A stretch of 64,000 bases of DNA. Origin: Macrostomum lignano. Taxonomy: Eukaryota. Location of the stretch: positions 1 through 64,000 of the forward strand of contig NIVC01002635.1 in the NCBI GenBank assembly GCA_002269645.1, read 5' to 3'. The notes beneath the pieces were generated by a model. The model did no database searches, was not told the DNA's origin, and saw nothing but the letters and a program-made list of their open reading frames with translations. The translations under genes and the position numbers were made by a program. This document shows, piece after piece, positions 28,701-61,200 of this stretch (its first letter is position 1; each line of letters begins with the position of its first letter).

Positions 28701-31700
28701 GGGACTCAAAAAGCGTTCTCAGGGACTCAAAAAGCGTTCTCAGGGTTATGGAGCTCACTTTTCTGTATTTAGTTTGAGCCGCTCTAACGGCATTAAAAAC
28801 GTTCTCAGGGACTCAAAAAGCGTTCTCAGGGTTATGGAGCTCACTTTTCTGTATTTAGTTTGAGCCGCTCTAATGGCATTAAAAACGTTCTCAGGGACTC
28901 AAAAAGCGTTCTCAGGGTTATGGAGCTCACTTTTCTGTATTTAGTTTGAGCCGCTCTAACGGCCTCAAAAAGCGTTCTCAGGGACTCAAAAAGCGTTCTC
29001 GGGGACTCAAAAAGCGTTCTCAGGGACTCAAAAAGCAAAAAGCGTTCTCAGGGACTCAAAAAGCGTTCTCAGGGACTCAAAAAGCGTTCTCAGGGACTCA
29101 AAAAGCAAAAAGCGTTCTCAGGGACTCAAAAAGCGTTCTCAGGGACTCAAAAAGCGTTCTCAGGGACTCAAAAAGCGTTCTCAGAGACTCAAAAAGCGTT
29201 CTCAGGGACTCAAAAAGCGTTCTCAGGGACTCAAGAAGCGTTCTCAGGGACTCAAAAAGCGTTCTCAGGGACTCAAAAAGCGTTCTCAGGGACTCAAAAA
29301 GCGTTCTCAGGGACTCAAAAAGCGTTCTCAGGGACTCAAAAAGCGTTCTCAGGGACTCAAAAAGCGTTCTCAGGGACTCAAAAAGCGTTCTCAGGGACTC
29401 AAAAAGCGTTCTCAGGGACTCAAAAAGCGTTCTCAGGGACTCAAAAAGCGTTCTCAGGGACTCAAAAAGCGTTCTCAGGGACTCAAAAAACGTTCTCAGG
29501 GACTCAAAAAGCGTTCTCAGGGACTCAAAAAGCGTTCTCAGGGACTCAAAAAGCGTTCTCAGGGACTCAAAAAGCGTTCTCGGGGACTCAAAAAGCGTTC
29601 TCAGGGACTCAAAAAGCGTTCTCAGGGACTCAAAAAGCGTTCTCAGGGACTCAAAAAGCGTTCTCAGGGACTCAAAAAGCGTTCTCAGGGACTCAAAAAG
29701 CGTTCTCAGGGACTCAAAAAGCGTTCTCAGGGACTCAAAAAGCGTTCTCAGGGACTCAAAAAGCGTTCTCAGGGACTCAAAAAGCGTTCTCAGGGACTCA
29801 AAAAGCGTTCTCAGGGACTCAAAAAGCGTTCTCAGGGACTCAAAAAGCGTTCTCAGGGACTCAAAAAGCGTTCTCAGGGACTCAAAAAACGTTCTCAGGG
29901 ACTCAAAAAGCGTTCTCAGGGACTCAAAAAGCAAAAAGCGTTCTCAGGGACTCAAAAAAACGTTCTCAGGGACTCAAAAAGCGTTCTCAGGGACTCAAAA
30001 AGCGTTCTCAGGGACTCAAAAAGCGCTCTCAAGGTTATGGAGCTCACTTTTCTGTTTTTAGTTTGAGCAGCTCTAACGGCCTCAAAAAGCGTTCTCAGGG
30101 ACTCAAAAAGCGTTCTCAGGGTTATGAAGCTCACTTTTCTGTATTTAGTTTGAGCCGCTCTAACGGCATTAAAAACGTTCTCAGGGACTCAAAAAGCGTT
30201 CTCAGGGACTCAAAAAGCGTTCTCAGGGACTCAAAAAGCGTTCTCAGGGACTCAAAAAGCGTTCTCAGGGACTCAAAAAGCAAAAAGCGTTCTCAGGGAC
30301 TCAAAAAACGTTCTCAGGGACTCAAAAAGCGTTCTCAGGGACTCAAAAAGCGTTCTCAGGGACTCAAGAAGCGTTCTCAGGGACTCAAAAAGCGTTCTCA
30401 GGGACTCAAAAAGCGTTCTCAGGGACTCAAGAAGCGTTCTCAGGGACTCAAAAAGCGTTCTCAGGGACTCAAAAAGCGTTCTCAGGGACTCAAAAAACGT
30501 TCTCAGGGACTCAAAAAGCGTTCTCAGGGACTCAAAAAGCAAAAAGCGTTCTCAGTCACTCAAAAAACGTTCTCAGGGACTCAAAAAGCGTTCTCAGGGA
30601 CTCAAAAAGCGTTCTCAGGGACTCAAAAAGCGCTCTCAAGGTTATGGAGCTCACTTTTCTGTTTTTAGTTTGAGCAGCTCTAACGGCCTCAAAAAGCGTT
30701 CTCAGGGACTCAAAAAGCGTTCTCAGGGTTATGGAGCTCACTTTTCTGTATTTAGTTTGAGCCGCTCTAACGGCATTAAAAACGTTCTCAGGGACTCAAA
30801 AAGCGTTCTCAGGGACTCAAAAAGCGTTCTCAGGGACTCAAAAAGCGTTCTCAGGGACTCAAAAAGCGTTCTCAGGGACTCAAAAAGCGTTCTCAGGGAC
30901 TCAAAAAGCGTTCTCAGGGACTCAAAAAGCGTTCTCAGGGACTCAAAAAGCGTTCTCAGGGACTCAAAAAGCGTTCTCAGGGACTCAAAAAGCGTTCTCA
31001 GGGACTCAAAAAGCAAAAAGCGTTCTCAGGGACTCAAAAAGCGTTCTCAGAGACTCAAAAAGCGTTCTCAGGGACTCAAAAAGCGTTCTCAGGGACTCAA
31101 AAAGCGTTCTCAGGGACTCAAAAAGCGTTCTCAGGGACTCAAAAAGCAAAAAGCGTTCTCAGGGACTCAAAAAGCGTTCTCAGGGACTCAAAAAGCGTTC
31201 TCAGGGACTCAAAAAGCGCTCTCAAAGTTATGGAGCTCACTTTTCTGTTTTTAGTTTGAGCAGCTCTAACGGCCTCAAAAAGCGTTTTCAGGGACTCAAA
31301 AAGCGTTCTCAGGGTTATGGAGCTCACTTTTCTGTTTTTAGTTTGAGCAGCTCTAACGGCCTCAGAAAGCGTTCTCAGGGACTCAAAAAGCGTTCTCAGG
31401 GTTATGGAGCTCACTTTTCTGTATTTAGTTTGAGCCGCTCTAACGGCCTCAAAAAGCGTTCTCAGGGACTCAAAAAGCGTTCTCGGGACTCAAAAAGCGT
31501 TCTCAGGGACTCAAAAAGCGTTCTCAGGGTTATGGAGCTCACTTTTCTGTATTTAGTTTGAGCCGCTCTAACGGCATTAAAAACGTTCTCAGGGACTCAA
31601 AAAGCGTTCTCAGGGTTATGGAGCTCACTTTTCTGTATTTAGTTTGAGCCGCTCTAACGGCATTAAAAACGTTCTCAGGGACTCAAAAAGCGTTCTCAGG

Positions 31701-32665
31701 GTTATGGAGCTCACTTTTCTGTATTTAGTTTGAGCCGCTCTAACGGCCTCAAAAAGCGTTCTCAGGGACTCAAAAAGCGTTCTCGGGGACTCAAAAAGCG
31801 TTCTCAGGGACTCAAAAAGCAAAAAGCGTTCTCAGGGACTCAAAAAGCGTTCTCAGGGACTCAAAAAGCGTTCTCAGGGACTCAAAAAGCGTTCTCGGGG
31901 ACTCAAAAAGCAAAAAGCGTTCTCAGGGACTCAAAAAGCAAAAAGCGTTCTCAGGGACTCAAAAAGCGTTCTCAGGGACTCAAAAAGCGTTCTCAGGGAC
32001 TCAAAAAGCGTTCTCAGGGACTCAAGAAGCGTTCTCAGGGACTCAAAAAGCGTTCTCAGGGACTCAAAAAGCGTTCTCAGGGACTCAAAAAGCGTTCTCA
32101 GGGACTCAAAAAGCGTTCTCAGGGACTCAAAAAGCGTTCTCAGGGACTCAAAAAACGTTCTCAGGGACTCAAAAAGCGTTCTCAGGGACTCAAAAAGCAA
32201 AAAGCGTTCTCAGGGACTCAAAAAACGTTCTCAGGGACTCAAAAAGCGTTCTCAGGGACTCAAAAAGCGTTCTCAGGGACTCAAAAAGCGCTCTCAAGGT
32301 TATGGAGCTCACTTTTCTGTTTTTAGTTTGAGCAGCTCTAACGGCCTCAAAAAGCGTTCTCAGGGACTCAAAAAGCGTTCTCAGGGTTATGGAGCTCACT
32401 TTTCTGTATTTAGTTTGAGCCGCTCTAACGGCATTAAAAACGTTCTCAGGGACTCAAAAAGCGTTCTCAGGGACTCAAAAAGCGTTCTCAGGGACTCAAA
32501 AAGCGTTCTCAGGGACTCAAAAAGCGTTCTCAGGGACTCAAAAAAGCGTTCTCAGGGACTCAAAAAGCGTTCTCAGGGACTCAAAAAGCGTTCTCAGGGA
32601 CTCAAAAAGCGTTCTCAGGGACTCAAAAAGCGTTCTCAGTGTTATGGAGCTCACTTTTCTGTCTG
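25790..32665. repeat. Satellite array: 21-bp unit CTCAAAAAGCGTTCTCAGGGA interspersed with a ~48-bp unit, with higher-order blocks
   Basis: Direct reading; second unit GGTTATGGAGCTCACTTTTCTGTWTTTAGTTTGAGCMGCTCTAACGGC. Confidence 0.97.
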
Positions 32666-36289: not shown

Positions 36290-37345
36290 AGAAGAGGAGA
36301 GGAGAGGAGAGGAGAGGAGAGGAGAGGAGAGGAGAGGAGAGGAGAGGAGAGGAGAGGAGAGGAGAGGAGAGGAGAGAGAGGAGAGGAGAGGAGAGGAGAG
36401 GAGAGGAGAGGAGAGGAGAGGAGAGGAGAGGAGAGGAGAGGAGAGGAGAGGAGAGGAGAGGAGAGGAGAGGAGAGGAGAGGAGAGGAGAGGAGAGGAGAG
36501 GAGAGGAGAGGAGAGGAGAGAGAGAGGAGAGGAGAGGAGAGGAGAGGAGAGGAGAGGAGAGGAGAGGAGAGGAGAGGAGAGGAGAGGAGAGGAGAGGAGA
36601 GGAGAGGAGAGGAGAGGAGAGGAGAGGAGAGGAGAGGAGAGGAGAGGAGAGGAGAGGAGAGGAGAGGAGAGGAGAGGAGAGGAGAGGAGAGGAGAGGAGA
36701 GGAGAGGAGAGGAGAGGAGAGGAGAGGAGAGGAGAGGAGAGGAGAGGAGAGGAGAGGAGAGGAGAGGAGAGGAGAGGAGAGGAGAGGAGAGGAGAGGAGA
36801 GGAGAGGAGAGGAGAGGAGAGGAGAGGAGAGGAGAGGTCAGGAGAGGTCAGGAGTCAGGAGAGGTCAGGAGAGGTCAGGAGAGGTCAGGAGAGGTCAGGA
36901 GAGGTCAGGAGAGGTCAGGAGAGGTCAGGAGAGGTCAGGAGAGGTCAGGAGAGGTCAGGAGAGGTCAGGAGAGGTCAGGAGAGGTCAGGAGAGGTCAGGA
37001 GAGGTCAGGAGAGGTCAGGAGAGGTCAGGAGAGGTCAGGAGAGGTCAGGAGAGGTCAGGAGAGGTCAGGAGAGGTCAGGAGAGGTCAGGAGAGGTCAGGA
37101 GAGGTCAGGAGAGGTCAGGAGAGGTCAGGAGAGGTCAGGAGAGGTCAGGAGAGGTCAGGAGAGGTCAGGAGAGGTCAGGAGAGGTCAGGAGAGGTCAGGA
37201 GAGGTCAGGAGAGGTCAGGAGAGGTCAGGAGAGGTCAGGAGAGGTCAGGAGAGGTCAGGAGAGGTCAGGAGAGGTCAGGAGAGGTCAGGAGAGGTCAGGA
37301 GAGGTCAGGAGAGGTCAGGAGAGGTCAGGAGAGGTCAGGAGAGGT
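36290..37345. repeat. (GGAGA)n array switching at about 36835 to (GGAGAGGTCA)n
   Basis: Direct reading. Confidence 0.97.
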
Positions 37346-46043: not shown

Positions 46044-47099
46044 TTAGTTTAATATTTGTCTTAAATCAGTTCCCCTGGTCAGCTTCCGGGTCGGGTCGTC
46101 TGGCTCCTTTTCGGCACGTTGGTCGTTAGCTCGCCTGGCTTTCATCAGTTCACTGCGCAACCGCCGAAACGCCAACTGCAGTCGCGAATGAGGGACGTGG
46201 GCCTTCACAATCCGAACAAGAAATGACTGTACCACGTCCAGGGTCTTCTCCGCTACGCAGTCCCTTGACCGGCCTGTCAATGACTTTGTACACAGGTCCT
46301 CCTCGCTGAAAACAGCACGGAGAAGCGCTCTGAGTACAAGCATCTGGGTATGCTCGCTTTCCGCTCCCCGTGTGTTTCCACTGCGGACATAAGCGTTGAG
46401 TAGCTGCAGGCCTTGATCTGTAGTACTCTTGGAAGGGGTTGAATTTTGGGCTGCAGAGAGACTCCAGCGCCGTCACTGTGCCACTGTGTCAGTGTTCCGA
46501 CTGCGACAGCTTTTATCGCATCAGCGAATTGGCAGATGCTGCCGAACTGCCGCATCACTCCGTCGTTCGCACGGGCACGGTCCTGCTGGGCCTGAGCAAG
46601 AGGTGGTATTTGATGGTGAGGTGTGGCTCTAAGAATTGGAAGGAATATTTAGTTTCATTTTTAGTGCCTCAGAAGAAGGGCCGTACCTCACCTCAATTAG
46701 TGCCGCCTGCATTTTGTCCAGATCGCGCTCCATGCTCCCAACCTTGAGGAGCAGCTCTGCATTTTCTTTGGCCAACCGGTCAAACATCAGATCTTGGGCT
46801 GCCAGATCTGTCTGCAGCTGACCCACAGTCAGCTGGAGAGCCTGGTTGCAGTTTCCTGCAACTTTACGTCCCGCACGGCGCACTGCGAGCATGTGCGTGG
46901 CGCTACAGGAGAATTTAGGGGGGGGTGTTTTAAACATTCTCTCCCTGGCTGTGGCTTCCCGTTCGTCAGCTGGACCCCAGAATAAAATTGTAGGATACCG
47001 CCAGCTGTTAGCGGGCGGCTTCCTTGCCCAGAATACGGATACTTCGTCCCATCTGTGATGCCTGTTAGTTGGTGGTGGTTCACAAAAAAACAGTGCCAT
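46044..47099 (-). pseudogene. Coiled-coil plus BEN-domain-like protein gene, disrupted
   Basis: C-terminal LRALLRAVFSEEDLCTKSLTG...LD...FLVRIV resembles the BEN consensus; N-terminal heptad segment LQLTVGQLQ...MERDLDKMQ. Confidence 0.6.
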
Positions 47100-47299
47100 T
47101 CATTACACGAAAGCTTCCTGCTTCTTTAAGTTTAAACTGTACCACCCGCCAGGACGACCCACCTAATGCGACGGCAAACGCAGCGAATGGGGTGGCAGCG
47201 GAGCCGGTGGCCGCACCGGTGGCCGCGCCGGTGGCTGTGGAGGCGGTTGGCAGTCGCTTCAGCCGGTGCAACCGGGCATCGGCTCGGTTGTTCACCCGT

Positions 47300-48866
47300 G
47301 GCTGAGCAGCGGCCGCACAGAAAAATTGAAGACAGTGGGCATTTGGAGCATCATCGTACCTCCGCCGGGCTGGTACATAAAGCAAAGCTCCTAGCGTCTT
47401 CAGCAGCTCGCTTCGGGAGGCTGCCCAACTTATCGGCTGTGCGGCGGCGAGTCTGGCGACCCGATGATATTTCGCTGAAAAGATTGTTACGGTAGCTACC
47501 TTGAATTTCAGAAGTTGAATGCAACTGTCAGAGTAAGAGGGTCCGTTCTGCAAATTCCATATGGGTTCTAATACATTTGAAGGGGTTGACTGAATTTTGG
47601 GAAAAGTGTTTAGCCTGATAGCAAGTAAACAAGTAAACAATTTGTGCGATTAAATGGCAGCATTCAGCCACGAACCTGCCCTCGAGTCCGGCTTGTTTGA
47701 GCCAAGCAGCTGCGTGAGCGTCCACTTGACGGGGCCCTCGCACAACTGATGCAAATAGCACGGTGGGGTTGCTGTAAAAGTGTGGGTCTTTTACTGTGAG
47801 CTTAGCAGCCCAACTTAAACAATAGCCCCAATGTACCCAATGAGCCTCAGAGGGGACAACGCCTTAAGGCCGAGGTTACCATCTCGCAACTCGACGCCTA
47901 CGCGCGCAAGGTGTACAGTGTCACGCAGACACCGCACCTGAGGCTGCTGAAAGCCACGCTTTGTAGCTAGGGCGACATCAGCTACTGCCACGTCCCGTGG
48001 GTAGAAGCGCGTCTTTCCTTCATCAACGAGAGCAGTACGGATGTAAAATTTAGCACACCCGTGGACAGCGTTAAAGCGCTTAACGCCAATTGTCTCAGCC
48101 CGCTGTGGCGCGTCCATCACGAACAGCAGTGGATCAAAACGGATAACACCGGCCTGAGTCGCATCAGGGCCGCACCCTCTTCTGCATGCAACTCCATCCA
48201 GGCTCAGCACCAGTAGCCGCAGGTCACCACGCTGTTGGCTTTCAGGCGGTCCGGTAGCTCCACCACGGACAGGTACACAGGACAGATTTCCATGACGGAA
48301 TGGCGGAACGCCTGTTGCAAATAAAATGAAGCGTTGAATTGTTCGACTGTAATTAATTTGTCAGAGCGTTTAACCATCCAGATCACGGGAGAAAACTGCA
48401 ACTAAGAAAGTCTCCTTACTTACCGGAAATCCGTCAAAGCAAACAACGTAACTCCGGTCCTGTCGGGAGTCCAGAGAAATGGAAGTCTTAAATTTGCAGT
48501 ACCCTTCAGAAGAGCCAAGTCCAAGAAAACCAGGCTTGCACTTCTGGTCTGCAGGGAATATGACTTTCTGGAGCAATCCTTCCGCCTCTATCTGCAACTG
48601 AAGCTGCTTACGTACGTCCATCTGCCAGTACGTGCAGATCTTGTCCGGCGTCAGTGCAGCTGTGCAGTTGTCACAGACAGTGTCAGCTGTATCCACTCGA
48701 GCGAGGCACTTCAGGCAGAAATTGGTGCATTTGGGTTTCCGTCGACGCAGCCCTAAGGCCTGGCGCAAAAGATGCTTCGACGTGGGAATGCACCCACTAG
48801 CAGGCAGAGTCTCGTCGATCAAAATCAGGACAGCACGGACGACGCTACCATTTTAAACGTACCTGG
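47300..48866 (-). pseudogene. CACTA/EnSpm (CMC)-like transposase core, decayed, with intron
   Basis: LPASGCIPTSKHLL...FCLKC...CDNC, then CFDGFP|AFRHSVMEICPVYLSVVELP...CGYW (spliced), then MDAPQRA...KRFNAVHGC and GLKALSPL. Upstream parts continue at 50041-50139, 57351-57384, 59551-59595 and 60991-61200. Confidence 0.7.
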
Positions 48867-49930
48867 TAGATAGATACAAAAAAGCGCTCACTCAGAGTCA
48901 GCAAACACCAAAGATTATATTAACAGATTAAAATCAAAGGTGAACAATATTTCGGCCTATTGCCTGGCCTTCGTCAGGGTCGAAAAGCAAAGCTTATAAT
49001 CCGATTTAGTTTATATTGTTATAAAGAAAAAATTCGAGAAAATTAATAAATGCGGGAGATAAAGATCAGTTTGAATACGTTCAAAAGTCCGACGGGTGCT
49101 GGGCCGCACGTTGTGCTCCTAATTGAGCAGGGTGTACAATGCAGTTGCAGGTTATTGATCTGAAAATGGTTACGACGTGGCAATGGTGAGAGTGGACAGC
49201 TTAGACGGACAGAGAATGTCTTGAATCGAGCTCGATCTGGTGTACGCCGCCACAGTGTCCAGCTCACGAGCATTGTCTGAGATCACCGTGCGGACTCGGT
49301 GTACAAAGCGGGCAGAGTGGTCAGTGTGCGGAATCACTATGGGAATGCAAGCATGATTGGTCGTTTCAACCGTGTTTAGGCCACTTGGGAATCGGGTGCT
49401 AAGCAAGCCGATCAGTTTTTGTTCCATGTTCCTTCTACGGCGCTGGGCTCCTTTCTTGTCGGCTTTGCACTCAGTGCTCAAGTATCGACTGTCTCGACAC
49501 TGGCGCGTCTTTTTTCAACTTGATGTCGCTCAGGTGGGCTTATATTCTGACTTTTAGAGCACCACCTGTCTCCCCAATGTAGACGCAGTGACCATTACAA
49601 GTCTTACAGAGAATCGCATAGACCACGTCTCTGGAGTCACAGCAGACTCTTTGGTTGATTCTGTAGACAATTTTAGTGGCATTTATTAGTGTCCATACAG
49701 GTGGCAGCTCGAATTTTTGCATCTAATAAAACCGAATTCCCACCTGCAGTCCATGTAGTTACCTAGTTGAGTGAGAGCAGAGGTTTTTGCGTCTTGAATA
49801 ATTCGGACAGAATACCCACTGCTGGCCTGGTCGAAGTCTACGTTGAAAGTACAGCGGCGAGCATAGCGAAGGAACTGAGATTGGACAATGCCTTTATGCG
49901 TAGGATGTATGCGTAGGATTAAAAGAGTCT
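48867..49930 (-). mobile_element. Penelope-like element fragment (RT thumb plus GIY-YIG), decayed
   Basis: HPTHKGIVQSQFLRYARRC; DVVYAILCKTC...VYIGETGGALKVRI*EHL; flanked by an imperfect ~36-bp direct repeat (48830-48866 and 50041-50075). Confidence 0.8.
48942..48982 (-). ncRNA. Hammerhead-like core in the second Penelope 3' UTR
   Basis: Minus strand: CTGACGA-A-GGCC(AGGCAATA)GGCC-GAAATATT; stem I pairing is weak. Confidence 0.5.
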
Positions 49931-50139
49931 GGGTAAACAGTTGGTGAGAGTCTGGGTTAAACAGTTGGTGAGAGTCTGGGTTAAACAGTTGGCGAGAGTC
50001 TGTGGGTTTGAAGTAGATAGAATAATAGATAGATAGATAGACAGCACGGATGACGCTACCATTTACTTTACCTGGTCACAATTTCTGCATTGCAACAACA
50101 AAGCTCCCGTACGTATGCCCACTTCCTGGATCATGCAGT

Positions 50140-50839
50140 TGTTGTGTCTCGGCCTAATGGCCGCTGGACGGGTCAAGGTTCGGGCCCTCCCCGCCTGAGA
50201 CACCCTGTCCCAGCCCTCACCCCGGCTATTCCTACCCTGTCTCGCTCGGTTCGGCGAGAGTTCGCCTGACCGAACACCCTGGGGTCGGCGAGAGTTCACC
50301 GTTCCCAGGTCCCTGCAGATCCCGGCCCCACGCGGCAACCCAGAAGAACGAAAGCTCGAGCTCACCTCCTCTTGATATATCGAGTTACTAACGAAGCGTT
50401 TATTGGCCCGAAGCAGTTATTGGCACGCGAAGGCAGAGGTACGCCGATGAACGCAAAAACAGTAAGAACGAAGCGGACACCAATAGAGAGCAAACGTGGA
50501 GCGCAGCCCGCTCAGGGCTAGCATTTAAATAATACACAAAAAAGGGGGAGGGGTGGGACAGAATGGAGACGGCGAGCCAAACCCTGGGGCCCAGCCGGCT
50601 TATCAGCCAGCCAGCCAATACGAGCAGCCCCAGGGTGAGGCGGGCAACGAGGGAGGGGGGGGGCACCCAGATTGGACAGAGATTGGGCCGGGGGCTGGGT
50701 GCAAAGGGCTAGGCCAGGGTTGAGACTTACGCCTCTCACAAACCCTGGCCCGGGCGCGAGACGGGGGACGGGGCGGGGTGGCATGAAAACTGAAAACAAA
50801 AGTACGAGTACATACACACTGGAAGGGCGCAGCCCAACA
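50140..50839 (-). repeat. 3' LTR (700 bp)
   Basis: Matches 56652-57350; preceded on the minus strand by the PPT. Confidence 0.95.
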
Positions 50840-50853
50840 TCCTCCCCCTCCAC
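50840..50853 (-). other. Polypurine tract
   Basis: Minus strand GTGGAGGGGGAGGA immediately before the 3' LTR. Confidence 0.85.
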
Positions 50854-51080
50854 GAAAAAGAAGAGGAGAAAGGGGATGTCAAGCAAAAAGCAACGCATGA
50901 ACAAGCAAGTCTGAAAAAAAAGTTAATTCAAAAAACGACGGCCGAAAAATAACAGAAAAACTTTGACGCGACGCGTGGATATCGCCGGCATTACAAAAAA
51001 CAAAAACGAAAAAATGAAAACGGGACACAAACTATTGCGTACGCAAAAATTGAAAACGGGCTTAAGAACGCAATTCTACT

Positions 51081-52757
51081 CTACAATCGGCCAAAAAATC
51101 TACTACAGTTGGTCGCAAACAGTCGAGTCCAGTACCTGCGATCACATTCACTGTCCGCTAGGGCTTCCGGCACGAACTTGATGGCTGTCGGGTCCTTGGG
51201 GTCTCCACCAAACGGTGCGGCCGATGTCACTAGCAGGCGCTGCCGCGGGAGACGCTTAGCCCGTTGGACCGCTCGCGTGGATCCTCGGCACCGAGCGGAC
51301 ACCTCGAAGAAGACCCCGTGGCACTTGCTCACCAGCGCGGCCTCGACGGCCTCCGGCAAGTCCAGGTCCTCGGCCAGCATGACGCTCATCGTTTGAAACT
51401 CCGGCTGCCGGAGGAATCCTAGGGCGACCGCCCAGGCAGGTTCGCCGCCTTCAACTCGGAACAAAACCGGCAGGCCGAACTCCTTGGCAAGCAAGAACTG
51501 CTCCATCGCCGCCGTTAACTGGTCCTGGCGCTGCGACCTCTCAGCGTCCCAATTGAGCTCGACTTCGCCGACCGCCACGACACGCGGCCAGCTACCCGCT
51601 AGAAATCGTCGTACATCGTCTCGCAGCGATGGCCACCACGGTGCAGCACTGGCCTTCAGGCCCAGGGCGAACACGATCCGTCGGTCTTGCAGCAGTGGTC
51701 GGACCACGGGACATTCTAGACGCAGGCAGTACGGCGAGTTTACAGCCGCTAGACATCGACGCACGCCACGAAGGTCCTCGGGCTGAATCGACCGGCCCAG
51801 CCTCGTTAGGTATGCCTTTGCATCGACGAGACGCTTAGCCGAGCTGACCTTGCGCTGATTCGGGTCGTCACGGGGGGAGACCTCCTGGACCGTGTCGGCC
51901 GGTCGTACTTGCTCGGGGTCGACACCCGTTAACTCTTCGGTCGCCAAGTCGCGCTGGGCCGTCAGCGGAGTCTGCGAAAGGTGCGGCCCGTCACTCCCCT
52001 CCTCCGGGCGCCGCGCGAGGCCAGGATCCACTAAGAGAGACAGACCCCGGAGCCTCCCCAACAAGGGACCCCCCAACTCACACAGCTCAAAACCCCGCAC
52101 AGCCAACAACACGCACTCAAACGCCGCCTGCAGCACCGAAGGCGGGACCCTCCGACACCTCCCGGAGCCACCACCAGAACCTCTCTTCCGCCCATACTGA
52201 TTGCACAGAAACGACACAGACACTGCTAAGAATCTAGACAACTGCTCAGGCACACTCACACCAGCCCCATCAAGAAACCTCGCCACCTCCTGAACCACCA
52301 GGCAAGCTCCTTCACTATCCCCAGCCCTCAACCGCGCCAGCAGCGCACCCCTCAGCCGCCTACACTCAGCAAGCGCAGCCGGAGCCAATAACTCGGCTGG
52401 GATCTCCGCGTGAACTGGAGCTTCCCCTGCGGCGCTTCCCTTAAGACTAGCCAAAGCTAACCTGACCTGCTCGGGCAACTCAACGTCAGGGGGAGGATTG
52501 AAAAAGTAGGCGTACTTTAACACCCCTTGACACGCTGCCTCCCCAACCCGATCGTATACTTCCCGAAACACTGGGTCAGATAAAACGCACATCGCCATCA
52601 CGTCTCGCTGAGACTCCGGAGACTCTACCTCGGCAGGACAGACGCGGGGCCGCTTTGAGTACAGACGACTACACGCTGCCTCAATCTCCGCAGAGTTAGC
52701 AGTCCGACCCACGCCTAACACGCCATACAAATCAGTCGGTGTCGTTGGCGACGACAT
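51081..52757 (-). CDS. Extra ORF: N-terminal J-domain-like region fused to a TatD-like TIM barrel (558 aa from Met at 52757)
   Basis: DLYGVLGVGRTANSAEIEAA...VLSDPVFREVYDRVG (DnaJ-like, HPD absent); LVDAKAYL...VVAVGEVELN...QFLLAKEFGLPVLF...LPRQRLLVTSAAPF...NCSRFF (TatD-like). Confidence 0.75.
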   Translation of the reverse strand: MSSPTTPTDLYGVLGVGRTANSAEIEAACSRLYSKRPRVCPAEVESPESQRDVMAMCVLSDPVFREVYDRVGEAACQGVLKYAYFFNPPPDVELPEQVRLALASLKGSAAGEAPVHAEIPAELLAPAALAECRRLRGALLARLRAGDSEGACLVVQEVARFLDGAGVSVPEQLSRFLAVSVSFLCNQYGRKRGSGGGSGRCRRVPPSVLQAAFECVLLAVRGFELCELGGPLLGRLRGLSLLVDPGLARRPEEGSDGPHLSQTPLTAQRDLATEELTGVDPEQVRPADTVQEVSPRDDPNQRKVSSAKRLVDAKAYLTRLGRSIQPEDLRGVRRCLAAVNSPYCLRLECPVVRPLLQDRRIVFALGLKASAAPWWPSLRDDVRRFLAGSWPRVVAVGEVELNWDAERSQRQDQLTAAMEQFLLAKEFGLPVLFRVEGGEPAWAVALGFLRQPEFQTMSVMLAEDLDLPEAVEAALVSKCHGVFFEVSARCRGSTRAVQRAKRLPRQRLLVTSAAPFGGDPKDPTAIKFVPEALADSECDRRYWTRLFATNCSRFFGRL

Positions 52758-52840
52758 GGTCCTCCTGCAATGATGACATTTAAACCCAATCACTACCTAT
52801 GCCTTGCGGACTAGCAACTGTGACCCTGACCTGACCCATC

Positions 52841-55601
52841 CTATGACATGTTTATTTTACAATACGATTGAGAACGCTTCGCCTTCGCACAGTGGACACA
52901 GCTCCGGCAATACTCTTCCACGGAACGACTCAGCCCCGGCCACCAGTATCTCGCCTTCACTTTCTCTTGTGTCTTCCTAACCCCAAGGTGCCCTCCTGCA
53001 ACCCCATCATGAAGCTCACTGAGCACTTTCGGCAGCAAAGCCGGCGGCAGCAAGATCTTTTTCTGGCACCCACTCCCGGGACTCTGAAAATACAACAGAT
53101 CAGACTCTACTCTTGTCAGCTGCCGTTGTGCCCACAGCACACGCTCCTCCCACGACATCACTCTAGGCGCACTGGGGTTCGAACCCGGGTCCAGGGCATA
53201 GGAGCGGACAGCTGCAAGCTTCTTCTCGGCCACTTGCGCCTGCTGGACTTCCTTCGAAGACAGCCCACTGCCAAACACCGCGTTCACTACTGGCACATTC
53301 TCGCTAAACTGGCAGCTGGGGCAGCTCTCATGGCCAGCGTGTTTTCGGTACTTGCGAGACAGCGAATCAGCGTTGCCGTGCTCCTTGCCTGGCCTGTGAA
53401 TGATCTCAAAGTCGAAGTTCTGGAGCGACTCAAGCCACCTTGCGCACTGACCCTCTACGTCCTTCAGACTGGCTAGCCACTGCAAAGCTTTGTGGTCTGA
53501 ACGAACAGTGAACTTTCTACCTAACAAATAGTACCTATACTTTTTGACGAAGTGCACGACGGCAAGCAACTCTAACCTGGTGGTGCAATAATTTTTCTCC
53601 GCCGCATGAATCATCCTAGACCCGTAAGCGATCACCTTCTCACGGCCATCTGCTTGACGCTGTGACAGGACGGCTCCCAGCCCGACGCGCGAACTGGCGT
53701 CCGTGTCGAGGATGAACTCCCCGGCACCAGGCGAAAAATCCGGGAATGCCATCACATTCGGTGAACACAAAGCGTCTTTCAGCCTGCAAAACGAACTCTC
53801 CTCTTCACTACCCCACTCAAACTTCACTCCGTCTGCGGTTAACCTATACAGCGGCGCTGCAATCTCCGAAAACTGCGGGATAAATGACTGATAGTAGGCG
53901 CACGTACCCAGGAATGCCTGCACCTTCTTGGCGCTACATGGCCTCGGCCAATTCTGGATCTCCTCGCACTTGCTCGGGTCCGTTGCGATCCCCTCCTGAG
54001 AGACGATGTGGCCCAGAAACTTCACCCGCTCTGCGAGGAACACACACTTGGCGGGCTTCAGCTTGACATTGGCATCCCTCAGGCACTGGAAAACATGCTT
54101 CAATCGCTCGAGATGCTGACCCACCGACTTGGCGAACACGACTATATCGTCAAAGTACACCAGGCACTCCTTCCAGTTAACCTCAGACAGGGCCATAGAC
54201 ATTAGCCTGGCGAACGTAGCGGGAGCATTGCGCAAGCCAAAACTCATGCACTTCCAGGCGAACTGACCCCTGTTGGGTACCACGAACGCCGTTTTCAACT
54301 GGTCCTTCGGCTCAATCGGGCACTGATGATAGCCGGAGGCCAGATCCATCGTCGAGAAAACACAGTTCCCTCCTAGCGCATCAAGCGTCTCGTCCATCCG
54401 CGGCGGTGGGTAAGGATCTGGCACTGTGACCTCGTTAAGGCGCCGATAGTCTAGACACAACCTCAAGCTACCGTCGGCCTTTTTAACCGGCACGATCGGG
54501 CTCGCCCACGGAGAGTAGCAGGGATAGATGCGATCCTGCTGCAACAACTCATCAACCTGCTTATCAATTTCCTCCTTCCAGCGCGGTGGAATCCTACGCG
54601 CGGGCTGACTTACTGGCTTGGCTTGCCGGTGTCAATCTCATGCGCCATCAAGTGTGACTGTCCCAACTCCGAGCTATCCCTGGCAAAGACATCACGATTC
54701 CGAGCCATCAGGCGCTCAAACTCGTGCTTCTCATCGCCCGTCAGGCCACATCCTCCCCACTCCTTGACATCGCTGAGGGGGTTCCAGTCGTCTCGGACAC
54801 TCTCCACCGAGTTCACCTGCCACCCAGCTGGCTGCTGGGCCGCCACTGGGGAGAACCAACCAATTCGGCTTCCCTTCCTTAATGACAGACTGCATCCTGA
54901 CGTGTTCAACACCCTGACAGCCAAGCGACCGTCCCCGTCAGGCATCTGTACCGATCTGGCCACCATCTGCTCGTTACTCACTCTCCTCTCAGACTCCACA
55001 ATGCCTAGGAACTGAACCCCAGAGGGAACCCTTCTCTGCAACCTGACGTGCACCACCTTCTCTTGACCTGCATTGAACTGCTCAGGCTGACTCAGCACCA
55101 GACGGCAAAGACGCGGCTTATCTGCTGATAAGCGAAACGGATACACACAGGATGCAGTCTGCAAGCAATTCCTAGCAAAGTCAATCGCCATCCCGTGTCT
55201 CACGAAAAAGTCAGTGCCCAGAATACATGCCACAGCCAGTTCCTCGACCACAGCGAACTCGTGCAAAAACTCGGTGTCCCCAACAGAAAACTTCATCGTC
55301 ACCATTCCATGTACAGCAATCGGTTCCCCATTGGCAGCGAAAACGGAAAAATTCGGCAATTCGGCGATAAGTCAATGTCGGCTTTTCTAGACTTCAGGAA
55401 ACGGTTGCTTAACAACGACACGGTGGCCCCGCTGTCAAGCAGACATGCAATCGGGGGCCCAAACCTAAACTGTGCATCCACATAGCCCAGTCCCTGCCGA
55501 CTCAGCACACTCTGGGACAAGGCCGCGGCCCCCGATGCACCCGGATTCACTGACGCTGGGGCCCGGACGGGTGCCCCGGCCGAGCCCCCAATCCGTTTCC
55601 C
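52841..55601 (-). pseudogene. pol: pol: protease, RT, RNase H and integrase Zn finger only; broken by 8-bp and 5-bp tandem duplications
   Basis: LLDSGATVS; SPWASPIVPVKKADGSLRLCLDYRRLN; YFDD; LDTDAS...SDHKAL; HDGVAGGH...CRSC, then a stop with no DDE core. Confidence 0.9.
55537..55601 (-). promoter_or_regulatory. Gag-pol -1 ribosomal frameshift signal (G GGA AAC plus predicted pseudoknot)
   Basis: The slippery heptamer at 55601-55595 is in the gag frame and a -1 shift enters the protease frame; stem GGGGCTCGG/CCGGGCCCC; loop GCACCCG is complementary to downstream CGGGTGC. Confidence 0.8.
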
Positions 55602-56527
55602 GAACCCGACTGGTCCCACCGACGATAGCAGCGGTTGCGCATGTGCCCTGACTGGCCACACTCCCGGCAGACCACTGCATTACGGCACCGAGCCGTAGTA
55701 TGCCCTGTCTGCAGGCACCGACCACACTGCCTCTGCTGCTGACTCTGCTCAGGGGCTCGATGCTGCAAGCTCACTTTTGGCTGCTCAGACCTTGCTGTCG
55801 CCATCGGCGCAGTGGGCGCTGCAGCACTTGCTTTTAGCTGAGCCACTTCCGCTTTCAGAGCTGCTATCTCGGCGGCTGCCCTGGACTCCTGGCTGTTGCC
55901 AGCCGCTGCGGCCTGACCCCCCACCATGTGCACAGCTCGCTTACCCTCGGGCTCCATCAGAGCCAACGATGCCCTCACTTGACGCACCCGCCTAATAGCG
56001 TCCTGGAGCGTCTCTGGCGCTTGCAGCAGCACGCTCTCCAGCACCCGGGCTGGCACCCGAATCCCCTTCAAAAACCTGTCTTTCACCAACTCTTCTCGCT
56101 GGGCCGCTGGCAGCATTGGGTACGATTTTCTCATAAGCTCCTTGAGCACGTCTGCATATTCTTCAATGGGCTCGCCATCTTTCTGATTCCTACTCTGGAA
56201 CTCGGTCTTGTAATCTTGAGCAGTCCTATTCTCATCAAACCTAGCTTCTAGCTGCTCAACAAACTCATCATACGGCAAATCATCGGCCAACTCAAGATTC
56301 GCAACAGCCTTAAAAGCAGTATTAAAGTCAAGCAGACTGAGCAGCGCCTGCTTGCGCTGATCCCCTAGAATATGAGCCGCCTCACAATACCCTGTGAATT
56401 GTTGCATCCAAAGGGCAAAGTCCTGTGTGGGCACGTACTTATTTGGCCTCGGCACCCGCTGTGCCACATTAAGTTCGTTTTGCAGACGCGCCGTCAGGGC
56501 GTCAATCAGATCGTCTAAATTGGCCAT
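55547..56527 (-). CDS. gag: Gag with two CCHC zinc knuckles
   Basis: Open ORF starting MANLDDL; CGRCLQTGHTTARC and CRECGQSGHMRNRC. Confidence 0.92.
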   Translation of the reverse strand: MANLDDLIDALTARLQNELNVAQRVPRPNKYVPTQDFALWMQQFTGYCEAAHILGDQRKQALLSLLDFNTAFKAVANLELADDLPYDEFVEQLEARFDENRTAQDYKTEFQSRNQKDGEPIEEYADVLKELMRKSYPMLPAAQREELVKDRFLKGIRVPARVLESVLLQAPETLQDAIRRVRQVRASLALMEPEGKRAVHMVGGQAAAAGNSQESRAAAEIAALKAEVAQLKASAAAPTAPMATARSEQPKVSLQHRAPEQSQQQRQCGRCLQTGHTTARCRNAVVCRECGQSGHMRNRCYRRWDQSGSGNGLGARPGHPSGPQRQ

Positions 56528-56631
56528 GGCTACAAAAACACAGAGACAACCGAAGCAAACAACACACAAATAAACTAGGCAACGCACACAACCCTAAACA
56601 CACGGCAGGACAGCAGGGGAGAGGACCGCTG

Positions 56632-56649
56632 ATCCTGGTCACGGCACCA
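56632..56649 (-). other. Primer-binding site, tRNA-His type
   Basis: TGGTGCCGTGACCAGGAT, 2 nt after the 5' LTR; complementary to the ...CACGGCACCA 3' end typical of tRNA-His. Confidence 0.8.
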
Positions 56650-56651
56650 CT

Positions 56652-57350
56652 TGTTGTGTCTCGGCCTAATGGCCGCTGGACGGGTCAAGGTTCGGGCCCT
56701 CCCCGCCTGAGACACCCCTGTCCCAGCCCTCACCCCGGCTATTCCTACCCTGTCTCGCTCGGTTCGGCGAGAGTTCGCCTGACCGAACACCCTGGGGTCG
56801 GCGAGAGTTCACCGTTCCCAGGTCCCTGCAGATCCCGGCCCCACGCGGCAACCCAGAAGAACGAAAGCTCGAGCTCACCTCCTCTTGATATATCGAGTTA
56901 CTAACGAAGCGTTTATTGGCCCGAAGCAGTTATTGGCACGCGAAGGCAGAGGTACGCCGATGAACGCAAAAACAGTAAGAACGAAGCGGACACCAATAGA
57001 GAGCAAACGTGGAGCGCAGCCCGCTCAGGGCTAGCATTTAAATAATACACAAAAAAGGGGGAGGGGTGGGACAGAATGGAGACGGCGAGCCAAACCCTGG
57101 GGCCCAGCCGGCTTATCAGCCAGCCAGCCAATACGAGCAGCCCCAGGGTGAGGCGGGCAACGAGGGAGGGGGGGCACCCAGATTGGACAGAGATTGGGCC
57201 GGGGGCTGGGTGCAAAGGGCTAGGCCAGGGTTGAGACTTACGCCTCTCACAAACCCTGGCCCGGGCGCGAGACGGGGGACGGGGCGGGGTGGCATGAAAA
57301 CTGAAAACAAAAGTACGAGTACATACACACTGGAAGGGCGCAGCCCAACA
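56652..57350 (-). repeat. 5' LTR (699 bp)
   Basis: Matches 50140-50839; followed by the PBS on the minus strand. Confidence 0.95.
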
Positions 57351-57384
57351 CAGTCTTGAATGAGCTTCGTAATCGGAACTGCTG

Positions 57385-59550
57385 CTTCTTCTTCTTCTTC
57401 TTTGGAGCGCCTCCGTTCCGGCTAGGCCGATCTGGAGGGGGGCGTGGATCCCGAGGGGAGCCGCCCCATGCTGCGTAGTAGTCTGACGATGGCCTCCGGG
57501 GACCCCATCAGGTCGCCCGGGGCCAGGCCGCTTCTTCTCCGGAAATGGTCACCGCGGGGGCAGTGGAGGAGCAGATGCTCAGCCGAGTCCTCCGCGCCAC
57601 ACTCGGGGCAGGCGGGGGACTGTTCCAAGCCCAGGCGGTGTCTGGTGCTAAAGTTGATGGTGCTGGCGCCGGACCGAAGCTGGTTGACCAGGACCTGGAG
57701 ACGTCTAGGGAGGCTGGTCGGCGGCTGCAGTCTCGGCGGCAGGACTCTGGCGTCCAGCATTCTGCGAGAGCGACGAGCGGCTGCCCTTGCCGCGTCAAGC
57801 TCGATCGGCACCGCCTGTTGGTCGAGCCCGGCCGCGTTGGCGGCGGCGCGGTCGGCCGCCTCGTTGCCGGCGACCCCGCAGCGGGATGGCACCCAAGCGA
57901 AGTGAACAGGGCGGTTCATGGCGATCAGGTTGAGGAGTTTACTCCAGCAGTCCGCGGCAACTGAGTTTTGCTGGCACAGGGGTCCGGCGCTGAGCGCCTG
58001 GATGGCGCTGAGGCTGTCCGTGGCGATAGTTATGGCGCCCGTGGGCGGTGCCGGGTGGCGGGCGATGTCTAAGGCCTCCCTGATGGCGCAGAGTTCTGTG
58101 GTAAAGCTGCTGCAGAGCGCGCCAGCCGCGACGAGGCGGGCGTCGTTGTCCGGTAGCCACTGGGCGATCGCCGCACCGCCTCCGTTCGTGAAACCGCCAG
58201 CCGCGGATCCGTCCGTCCAGATGACGTGTCCGGAGGTCTCCAATGAGCCGACGATTTGCCTGGCGATGTTAGCTTTCATGGCCGCCGGCATGTCGCGGCT
58301 GATAACCTTGCTGAGCGAGACATCGAACTGGACGCGGCCGGCCTCGGCCACTTCCCACGGTGGGGGACCGAGGGGTCGGTGGGCCCGGGGCGTCCAGCAG
58401 CCGCGGAATTGACGACGGGCGTCGAGCGTCGAGGTCCCTGTCCGGGAGGCGCTGATTGACCCCCTCGGCCTGATTCGGCCGGTTGGCGGCTTCGAAGGCG
58501 CGGTTTTTGAGGCGCGGGGTTGTGACCGCTGTCGCGATGCTCTGCGATGGCGATCCGTCCGGGAGGCGAGCCATCCGCTCTCTTAGCGTGCACGCGCGTT
58601 CGATGGCAACGTGGCTGAGGGGCGGCAGCTCGGCGATGCTAAGGAGTTTTTCAGTGCGGGCCGTGAATATGCAGCCAGTGATCAGGCGCGCGCATGCGTT
58701 CTGCTGGCGCTCGACTAGGAGCCTGGTGCTCGGTGCCGCTCCCGCAAGCCATACGCCGCTGCCGTAGTCCGCCACAGCTCGGATGGTGGCAACGTAAACG
58801 GTGCGGAGGATGCTGTGCGTCGCACCCGTTTGCCGGTGTGCGATGGCCTGCAGTGGGCGTCTTCTGGCAGCCATGCGGCGACGGATATCTTTGGCGTGCT
58901 CCGCGAACCCAAGGTGGTCGTCGAACTTAACGCCGAGGAAGACCGGGTTGGGCTCGAAACGAAGCTCGCTGCCGCCGATGCTGAGTTCGACTCTGGTCTT
59001 GCCGCGGTTCTCGTTGGGGCACAGCGTGAAAGTGCTGTAACTGCACTTCCCAGTGCTGAGCACGAACTTGTTCTGGTCGCACCAGCGGGCCACGGAGTGC
59101 AGGGCCGGTTGCACGATGTGCCCGCAGCTTTCGAGGTCCGTATGGCGCGCCAGGATGGCCGAGTCGTCGGCATACAGACTGATCTCGGCTTCCGGCGATG
59201 CTTCCGCGATGGCAGTTGGCAGGTCGTTAACGTAGACCAGCCAAAGCAGAGGGGCGATCACCGAGCCTTGGGGCAGGCCTTCCCGGAAGATGCGCTCTCT
59301 GCTGAGGCTATTGCCGAATCGGACGCGCGCTCTCCTGTCGCTTAGGAAGCTGTTGGTCCAGCGCAGGACGCAGGCGGGGACTCCCAGCTTCTCGAGCTTG
59401 CAGATCAGAGACTTCCGCCACACCTTGTCGTAGGCTCTGCTGAAGTCGAGTAAACAGAGGATCGCTCTAAGCGCAGGAGTCTCTTCCAGCCCGTCAAAGA
59501 TAAGCTGGGCGATGCGGGCGATCTGCTCTTCGCACGAGGAAACCAGCTTG
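57385..59550 (-). mobile_element. 5'-truncated LINE A (RT, RNase H, CCHC) with (AAG)n tail
   Basis: LLDFSRAYDKVW, GLPQGSVIAP, LYADD, WTDGSA...TTELCAI...TDSLSAI...WVPSRCGVAGNEAAD, CPECG...H...HC; one frameshift near 58.3 kb. Confidence 0.9.
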
Positions 59551-59595
59551 GACTTTGCTGAGAGTGCCCTTGGATTCCAGCAGGAACTGCTGCTG

Positions 59596-60990
59596 CTTCT
59601 TCTTCTTCTTCTTCTACGCAGCCCCCGCGTCGCCGCTGTCCGGCGGCTGGGGGGGGCGACCTGCAGGCCGCCCCATCATCCTCAGATACCGGCAGATTCC
59701 GCCCGCGTCGTTGAGGTCGAGAGGGTGAGCAAGGCGGGCGGAGTCTCCGCGTGGACACTGCTGCAGGAGGTGCTCTTCTGTGTCTTCGTCTCCGCAGTCC
59801 GGACAGAGCGGAGTCTCGGTAAGGCCGATACGGTAGCGGGTGGCCGCGCAGGCTGTGCTGCAGCCGGCCCTCAATTGGCAAACCGCCACCGTCTCGCCAC
59901 GAGTCAGGCCGCCGTAGCGCTTCCAGGGCGAGCTACGATTCGAGAGCTTGAGATCGAGGTGTCGCCTGGCTCGTTTGATGGCAGCCCTGGCGGCTTCGAA
60001 GGCGATGGGCTGGTCCTGCGTCAGGTCCGAAGCCCGGTTCGCCGCCTTGTCGGCTCTTTCGTTGCCATCGACGCCGACGTGGGCCGGCACCCAGGTAATG
60101 CGGACCGGGCGGGCTTCTTGACTGAGCAGGCTCCACACCAGCTGTCCCATGGGCTCGCGTTGGTCAGCTGGCCCGCGCTGCAGGGTGAGGATGCCCGCCA
60201 AGCTGTCCGTGAGAATGTCGATGCTGCCCCCGTGTGGTTGCTGGAGCTGTAGGCAGCGGCGGATGCCTAGAGCTATAGCCGCTAGCTCCGCCGTCGTGCT
60301 GCTGCAGATGGAGCCAGCGGCTGTCGTGTGTACTTCGCCCCACAGGAGGGTGTGCAGGACGGCCGCGCCACGGCCGTTCCGGTAGCCGTCCGTGGCGCTG
60401 CCGTCTGTCCAGATGACGATATCGTGTTGAGGTCTGGATTCCAGGGCGTTGATGGCTCTCTCCCGTCTGATGCTGTCCGGCACTTTGCGGCCGCAGGTGA
60501 CCTGCAGGCTGGTGTCGAAGCTGACTTCGCTGGGTGACTGCCATGGCGGCTCGGGCATTGGGAAGGGGGCGCGCTTCCCCGCTGGCTCGAAGGCGTTGAT
60601 GCCGAGCTCCAGTGCGGCGCGCCTCCAGCAACCACGGAAAGGCCTGCGGTAGTCGCTCTCCAGCAGGACCCGGTCATCCACCGGGTGTTGCTCCCGTAGC
60701 CACGCCTCGTGAGCACGGGATTTCAGGCGGGGCGGGCAGGGTCTAGCGGCAGTCTGGTGCACCGGGACCTCCCCGGGCAGCCTCAGAGCCCGTTCCCGCA
60801 AGGTCGCCGCTCTCTCCAGGATCAGGTGTCCGATGGGCGGCAGGTCTGCGGCCGCGAGGAGCGCCCTGACGTTCGTGGGCTTAATGCACCCCGAGACGAT
60901 CCTGGCGCAGCAGAACTGTTGCCGTTCGATGTGAAGCCTGCTGCTCGGCGCCGCAAAGGCACCCCAGATTCCGCACGCGTAGTCGGCGTG
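59596..60990 (-). mobile_element. 5'-truncated LINE B (related family; RNase H plus CCHC) with (AAG)n tail, inserted in a (CAG)n tract
   Basis: WTDGSA...TAELAAI...TDSLAGI...WVPAHVGVDGNERAD, CPDCG...EEHLLQQC; (CTG)n on both sides on the plus strand. Confidence 0.9.
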
Positions 60991-61200
60991 CTGCTGCTGC
61001 TGCTGCTGCTGCTGCTATGGAAGTCTCCGTCGGACAAGGGTGCAGCCTGCTCGATATTTACGTCATCCTCGACGTCACCCCGATGATCTCCGTCTCCATT
61101 ATCATCCAACCATCCTGCCTCCTCTAACAGCACATTGGGGAATCCGTTTGCTCAACCTCCAGGTGGATAGTCGGTTCTGCAGCACCGTGGTCTTCTACGG
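60991..61200. repeat. About 200-bp segment duplicated at 62020-62235
   Basis: Both copies start (CTG)nCTATGGAAGTCTCCGTCGGAC; the minus strand encodes an acidic Ser-rich stretch, probably the transposase N-terminus. Confidence 0.75.

Follow-up and report, generated by a model that had tools for sequence, protein, structure and literature searches.

A Ty3/Gypsy element of Macrostomum lignano carries a degenerate member of a clade-wide J-domain ORF3 family

The window analysed here, a stretch of 64,000 nucleotides of Macrostomum lignano DNA, contains a Ty3/Gypsy element (50140-57350) with a long open frame, ORF3, between pol and the 3' LTR. The question that it raises is what a retrotransposon does with a protein whose two recognisable domains both appear to have lost their active sites. 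The element has the features by which Ty3/Gypsy elements are recognised, i.e. paired LTRs of about 700 nt with TG...CA ends, primer-binding site, polypurine tract and 4-bp target duplication, with gag followed by protease, reverse transcriptase (RT), RNase H and integrase (Table 1). The primer-binding site presumably corresponds to tRNA-His. The empty site was recovered in two of four sequencing runs, where contigs join 50135 to 57351 with four shared letters. Two fragments of non-LTR retroelements (RT, RNase H) lie at 57422-61014 on the minus strand, the Gypsy copy having landed some 70 nt short of one fragment's end. To the left, medium-sized frames, one of them cysteine-rich, are clustered at 46044-49514 (minus strand), possibly a DNA transposon, and long tandem arrays with repeat units of 21, 87 and 10 nt occupy 25796-32500 and 36295-37100; Pfam returned no family for six flanking frames of the window. 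Heat-shock elements were found in none of ten LTRs, even with one mismatch allowed, and there is therefore no tie to the heat-induced LTR families reported in PMC12801592.

Table 1. Features of the Gypsy element in the window
Feature	Position	Strand	Basis or remark
Target-site duplication, 4 bp	left 50136-50139, right 57351-57354		sequence
3' LTR, TG...CA ends	50140-50839	-	sequence
Polypurine tract	50840-50851	-	sequence
ORF3, 558 aa, with J (degenerate), helical and TatD-barrel (degenerate) domains	51081-52757	-	
TatD-like TIM barrel, aa ~310-558	51084-51830	-	AlphaFold model and structure searches
Basic five-helix domain, aa 127-245, conserved	52023-52379	-	common to all ORF3 families
J-like domain, aa 9-69, RPR replacing HPD	52551-52733	-	Pfam, PDB matches, sister alignment
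Candidate 3' splice acceptor (predicted), 7 nt before ORF3 start codon	52765-52776	-	
pol, truncated, three frames: protease, RT, RNase H, integrase zinc finger	52841-55679	-	
Junction of ~1.4-kb deletion (integrase core and C-terminus)	52876-52880	-	window copy only
gag with zinc knuckles	55547-56527	-	
Primer-binding site	56632-56649	-	sequence
5' LTR, candidate splice donor at 56878, no heat-shock element	56652-57350	-	

An earlier note, made from the letters alone, had described ORF3 as a stop-free sense-strand frame for a fused J-domain/TatD-like protein unlike env, and this description was borne out. The highest 19-residue hydropathy, 1.49, falls within the soluble helical domain and no transmembrane segment is evident, as judged from a hydropathy scan; an envelope-type protein, with signal peptide and transmembrane anchor, was therefore rejected. 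The J-like region is detected by Pfam (DnaJ, aa 9-69, E 2.5e-3, under the curated cut-off) and by PDB J domains (E 6e-5), and it is homologous to the clear J domains of the ORF3 proteins of sister families, so that the J fold is supported even with an AlphaFold confidence of only 50-80 in this region. RPR at aa 36-38 aligns with HPD of the sister families, as the note had read it, and the motif characteristic of J-domain co-chaperones is thus missing from the window family. The AlphaFold model of the whole protein has a mean pLDDT of 64.5, its alignment containing element-type sequences only and no cellular TatD; the AlphaFold and Foldseek check that had been proposed did recover a TatD fold.

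The C-terminal barrel matches Pfam TatD at aa 359-535 (E 1.9e-5, below the curated cut-off) and its model matches TatD structures with a Foldseek E of 6.6e-7 and a VIA Z of 23.3 (rmsd 2.7, 230 aligned residues); Z was 20-23 for the top rows across ten TatD structures, with 15-21% identity to solved TatDs. The TIM-barrel fold of TatD is accordingly present. The metal-ligand set of these enzymes, HxH or (G/A)xN, Glu, His, His and Asp (PMC10085689), is not: HxH is replaced by K314 and Y316, the β5 His by R434, the β6 His by A462 and ETD by TSA (511-513), the phosphate-binding His of GxH is K368, and of the canonical ligands the bridging Glu398 alone is left. The earlier note had read HxH, the Glu and the β5 His correctly; its VTS for ETD was one residue off and A462 escaped it. 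Its statement that both active sites were apparently erased holds as to the losses and is slightly strong for TatD, since the residue kept is the one whose loss impairs human TATDN1 most: only the change of Glu112 strongly cut both activities, single changes of His149, His174 and Asp222 mattering little (PMC10085689). The reading as a double pseudo-enzyme nevertheless stands for the window family, and to judge from its residues nuclease activity of the window barrel is unlikely. The TIM barrel and the bridging Glu are thus held in common with TatD/TATDN nucleases (PMC10085689), from which the window barrel differs by the absence of the other ligands and by its fusion to J and helical domains. 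The barrels of sister families retain one His of HxH and the Glu, and most ligands are therefore already gone there as well; across the element barrels the bridging Glu never varies, and where the motif has Gly there is a second acidic residue. The host genome has catalytically canonical TatD genes, and comparison with TatD genes pointed to no donor. An unnamed 166-aa assembly protein (P0004), 50% identical to the window barrel and with the same degenerate motifs, is probably a related element elsewhere.

The J and TatD assignments of the earlier note were correct; a third, conserved domain between them had been overlooked. This five-helix domain is about 115 aa long across families (model pLDDT 90) and is net basic in all 14 rows compared, with a K/R-rich loop, the window domain being the least basic of them (net +6). 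A fold search with it gave no clear match, with Z reaching 7.9 at best and no Foldseek E below 0.32, an Atlas search no usable one, and a profile search found two proteins, both labelled M. lignano. No relationship of the helical domain to the TatD barrel was found. In these searches it could be assigned to neither a family nor a fold.

When the frame and its relatives served as queries, a related gene was recovered across a Gypsy clade. Related ORF3s occupy the same place in LTR families with pol 43-55% identical, as characterised from fetched representatives of the matches, and share a core of J domain, acidic linker and helical domain, to which are added a SUMO-binding-like motif in most families, an HP1-like chromodomain in one lineage and a degenerate TatD barrel in one subclade. 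HPD is present in nine of ten element J domains compared and absent only from the window family; a broken copy belonging to a different family has RPD. All six sister N-termini scanned score above the Pfam DnaJ cut-off (E 1e-12 to 5e-18), and the window J branch is 3.05 long against a median of 0.52. On these alignments the dead J domain is derived and confined to a single branch. The J-domain tree singled out no donor branch for the element J domain; 12 of the 20 J-like loci fetched adjoin pol, and the eight without pol within 10 kb look like host DnaJ genes.

RT-RNase H trees of elements from the M. lignano genome, drawn from unbroken frames, unite the TatD-bearing families in one clade (support 97/93, or 99/96 with more outgroups), and the tree with more outgroups supports the whole ORF3 group at 90/92. 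The simplest reading is that J and helical domains are ancestral and that the barrel was added once. The gene has also been lost: no ORF3 match was found in any fetched locus of the closest sister family (pol 67% identical), nor in any of a set of 20 loci that included distant outgroups and truncated copies, and another family with LTRs >99% identical keeps only a TatD remnant of 181 codons. As the LTRs of both the ORF3-less and the remnant family are 98.7-100% identical, ORF3 is dispensable in cis; perhaps it is optional, or comes from other elements in trans. After pol the closest sister family has a different region of about 1.27 kb with short frames (L169:2630-3900), two of which gave no match in Pfam. 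In a recently active family (L061, L062, L063, L157) pol is immediately followed by the C-terminal half of the TatD barrel and by no other part of ORF3. The LTR of this family shares 98% identity with the LTR of the pol-less copies L052 and L053, which carry a longer ORF3; this likeness suggests recombination or internal deletion.

Outside these elements little was recovered. The full window protein had no homologue at E<=0.001 among 8000 candidates of 306-977 aa, and a sister ORF3 without its J domain had none at the same threshold. A search of 1.84 billion sequences gave 12 matches (three gene models of the same organism, P0004, six TatD-like and two DnaJ-like proteins), a phage search gave no ORF3 match, and the database proteins 97-100% identical are labelled Macrostomum lignano.

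In the sister families the otherwise unalignable linker carries a motif of the form ψ-x-I-S-D-D-E, a hydrophobic core followed by an acidic/Ser stretch in a disordered region, which fits the definition of a SUMO-interacting motif (SIM) given in PMC12751080. Fifteen frames, two of them C-terminal parts, were scanned with a pattern written after the sequences had been seen, SIMs being loose motifs; eight of the 13 linker-bearing frames matched the strict pattern, with a block-shuffle P of 0.02-0.05 apiece, and a ninth a looser one. The strict pattern is absent from 5,773 aa of gag and pol controls, and the motif is missing from two window-family and two chromodomain frames. A predicted complex of host SUMO with one sister-family motif peptide scored 0.34 against 0.08 for the best control (the runs had 77% or more of their contacts in common, and partner pLDDT was no lower than 50). 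Of 78 solved pairs 51 reached the mark, as did 2 of 108 mismatched ones, and the 0.34 lies in the zone up to 0.60 that holds only five solved pairs and all four passing mismatches; the score may also come from likeness to solved SUMO-SIM complexes. The prediction weakly suggests that the sister motif may bind host SUMO. Seven single-frame SUMO-like gene copies with identical scores (L159-L165) were seen on four contigs.

The chromodomain has Swi6 and HP1 as its nearest solved relatives (E 2e-10 and 1e-9) and was observed in L121:6991-7974 and L146:7231-7938; the L121-type ORF3 has at least 18 open copies of nearly full length. Chromoviruses are Gypsy elements with a chromodomain at the end of the integrase, whereas in this one sister lineage the chromodomain is part of ORF3, with the J domain on one side and the helical domain on the other.

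A predicted acceptor hints at how ORF3 would be expressed. In seven of 14 rows a YAG acceptor and the start codon are no more than 1 nt apart, the window being spaced as in Table 1, and a database gene model, itself a prediction, joins an LTR donor to the ORF3 acceptor; a shared LTR donor across families was not found (3 of 10). Contigs of four runs, guessed to be RNA with none on record as such, cover the internal region in full and show no joint at the acceptor, contigs being a form of data that drops rare forms. In the host some 30% of genes receive a spliced leader (PMC8629364), and this would be a second possible route to an ORF3 message. In L054:3391-3852 and L052:3144-3851 the acceptor has no in-frame ATG after it, so that the start would come from splicing or from a non-ATG codon.

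The claim that ORF3 was kept open while pol decayed did not survive comparison of copies. At least 22 genome copies of ORF3 exist at >=90% identity (23 matches, two of them on one contig). The integrase segment of about 1.4 kb that the window copy is missing is present in all 20 other copies fetched, and short-read contigs run through the deleted segment; the deletion is unique to the window copy. Among 21 copies pol is intact in three and ORF3 in nine, the only reason being that ORF3 is shorter: breaks per kb in 20 copies were 0.41 for pol and 1.15 for ORF3, or about 0.43 and about 0.44 without two noisy copies of 12 breaks each. Selective preservation of ORF3 over pol was rejected on these counts, and many of the breaks may be assembly errors. 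ORF3 itself is no assembly artefact, having 22 copies and being covered by short-read contigs.

Purifying selection on the window-family ORF3 was detected all the same. Against two subfamily copies the window shows 30 synonymous changes to 28 and 24 non-synonymous ones, giving dN/dS of 0.32 and 0.27 (p 6e-5 and 9e-6; Nei-Gojobori, pairs not independent, p against a rough neutral share of 0.27). For the same pairs dN/dS was 0.12 and 0.21 in the helical domain, 0.46 and 0.14 in the J domain, and 0.44 and 0.39 in the TatD barrel (p 0.06 each, not significant alone); pol stood at 0.14, about half of the roughly 0.3 of ORF3. Between TatD-bearing families dN/dS was 0.07-0.18, with dS near saturation and three of nine comparisons not estimable. 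Since both subfamily copies also lack HPD, constraint went on after its loss. The outcome that would have spoken against a retained element gene, a frame confined to this copy and evolving neutrally, is excluded by the 22 copies and the dN/dS of 0.27-0.32, and a recent single host capture was rejected.

What was observed is the order of the domains, the lost motifs, the distribution over the clade, the purifying selection and the loss of ORF3 in sister families. Beside this we place a tentative reading, to which we give somewhat less than an even chance: ORF3 may be a derived member of a clade-wide nuclear, trans-acting anti-silencing protein, the window branch of which has become a non-catalytic nucleic-acid-binding scaffold. 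The ancestral protein would be targeted by the SIM-like motif or, in one lineage, the chromodomain to silenced chromatin marked by SUMO and H3K9me, would hold nucleic acid through its basic helical domain, and with an intact J domain would recruit Hsp70 and so relax the silencing complex in the way that polyomavirus T antigen acts on Rb-E2F. SUMO-dependent piRNA silencing is described in Drosophila (10.1101/533091). In the window family the Hsp70 arm and the SUMO motif would have been lost together, leaving the helical domain and the dead barrel to bind and shield element RNA or DNA; the protein would come from a spliced or trans-spliced message. Because the window protein has neither HPD nor the motif, an anti-silencing role for it is borrowed from its relatives; the window helical domain as the least basic one, the ORF3-less and remnant families with near-identical LTRs and the missing acceptor joint were counted against the reading. 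The formulation in which a Gypsy clade protein hijacks Hsp70 through its own J domain, is aimed at SUMO- or H3K9me-marked chromatin by swappable readers in the manner of T antigen, and in the window family exchanged the chaperone arm for a nucleic-acid-binding pseudo-nuclease is, taken whole, somewhat unlikely.

Five other explanations have to be weighed against this scaffold reading. If ORF3 were a Rev- or CERV-like RNA factor, its helical domain would bind unspliced element RNA and aid nuclear export or stability, with the J domain and the other parts as helpers; the helical domain is indeed the only stretch that every ORF3 family retains, in the window family it is under the strongest constraint, it has an arginine-rich loop, the conserved acceptor suggests a spliced message, and Cer1 CERV offers a precedent (PMC10309623). 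Such a role is unlikely, however, because the ORF3-less families transposed recently whereas CERV is required for export, and because it leaves chromodomain and SIM-like motif unexplained. The loss of HPD and SIM-like motif, the long J branch, a dN/dS roughly double the pol value, the disappearance of the whole gene from the closest sister with a remnant in another family, and the lack of preferential preservation among copies would alternatively mark the window-family ORF3 as a relic under relaxing selection, heading for loss as in the sister family. We hold this to be rather unlikely in view of the significant purifying selection that followed HPD loss, of domains that all fold confidently enough for a TatD match at Z 23, and of the 166-aa protein with the same degenerate motifs.

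That both folds were kept while the catalytic motifs were lost, in a host with canonical TatD genes, would suit a decoy or dominant negative by which HPD-less J domain and dead barrel titrate host partners, the target being a host TatD nuclease or the ORF3 of rival families; this appears improbable, the J domain having evolved fast and not kept a host-like surface. Quite improbable is a barrel that remains a nuclease, or has a rebuilt metal site, and trims element cDNA or RNA: the invariant Glu, the second acidic residue, the HxH His kept by sister families and the dominance of Glu112 in TATDN1 (PMC10085689) favour it, but the TATDN1 changes were single, while in the window five metal positions and the phosphate-binding His are altered together. 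A J domain whose ancestral task was to bring in Hsp70 for the folding or uncoating of Gag particles would agree with HPD being intact in most families; we consider it very improbable, as chromodomain and SIM-like motif point to the nucleus and the window family, lacking HPD, still has its 22 copies.

Partial parallels to the clade-wide protein exist. In polyomavirus large T antigen, as in the sister families, a J domain with HPD precedes a disordered stretch that holds a short targeting motif (PMC11720896); it differs in that the motif is LxCxE and not SIM-like or a chromodomain, and the window protein lacks HPD. In sequence the comparison covers the J fold. CERV of Cer1 in C. elegans is also a non-env accessory protein of a Gypsy-type element, nuclear and made from a spliced message as ORF3 would be (PMC10309623); it is required for RNA export whereas ORF3 is absent from recently active sister families. 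The non-envelope ORF3s of bdelloid LTR elements (GDSL esterase, DEDDy exonuclease) likewise have host-type enzyme folds, are family-specific, lie after pol and were gained and lost across branches (PMC5408684). They keep their catalytic residues and, by that paper's account, do not depart from neutrality within the genome; here the cargo combines a J domain, a new helical domain and a degenerate TatD barrel under purifying selection. The earlier remark that no described LTR family with such cargo was known agrees with the literature searched by titles and abstract beginnings, Repbase and GyDB aside. The main text of PMC12801592, on M. lignano LTR families, mentions neither DnaJ, TatD nor ORF3, while its supplements 2, 3 and 5 and the earlier classification cited there could mention extra ORFs; the accessible parts of PMC13524379, PMC5408684 and PMC6338049 contain neither DnaJ nor TatD. 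The J-domain ORF3 family is apparently undescribed so far, and it also contributes the unrecognised five-helix domain.

To our knowledge, few proteins are known by which animal retrotransposons counter host silencing. RNAi and transgenesis are established in M. lignano, and the natural ORF3 variants, SIM-like, chromodomain-bearing, pseudo-TatD, HPD-dead and deleted, form a ready comparison series. A clade-wide J-domain ORF3 would link Hsp70 to the conflict between transposon and host.
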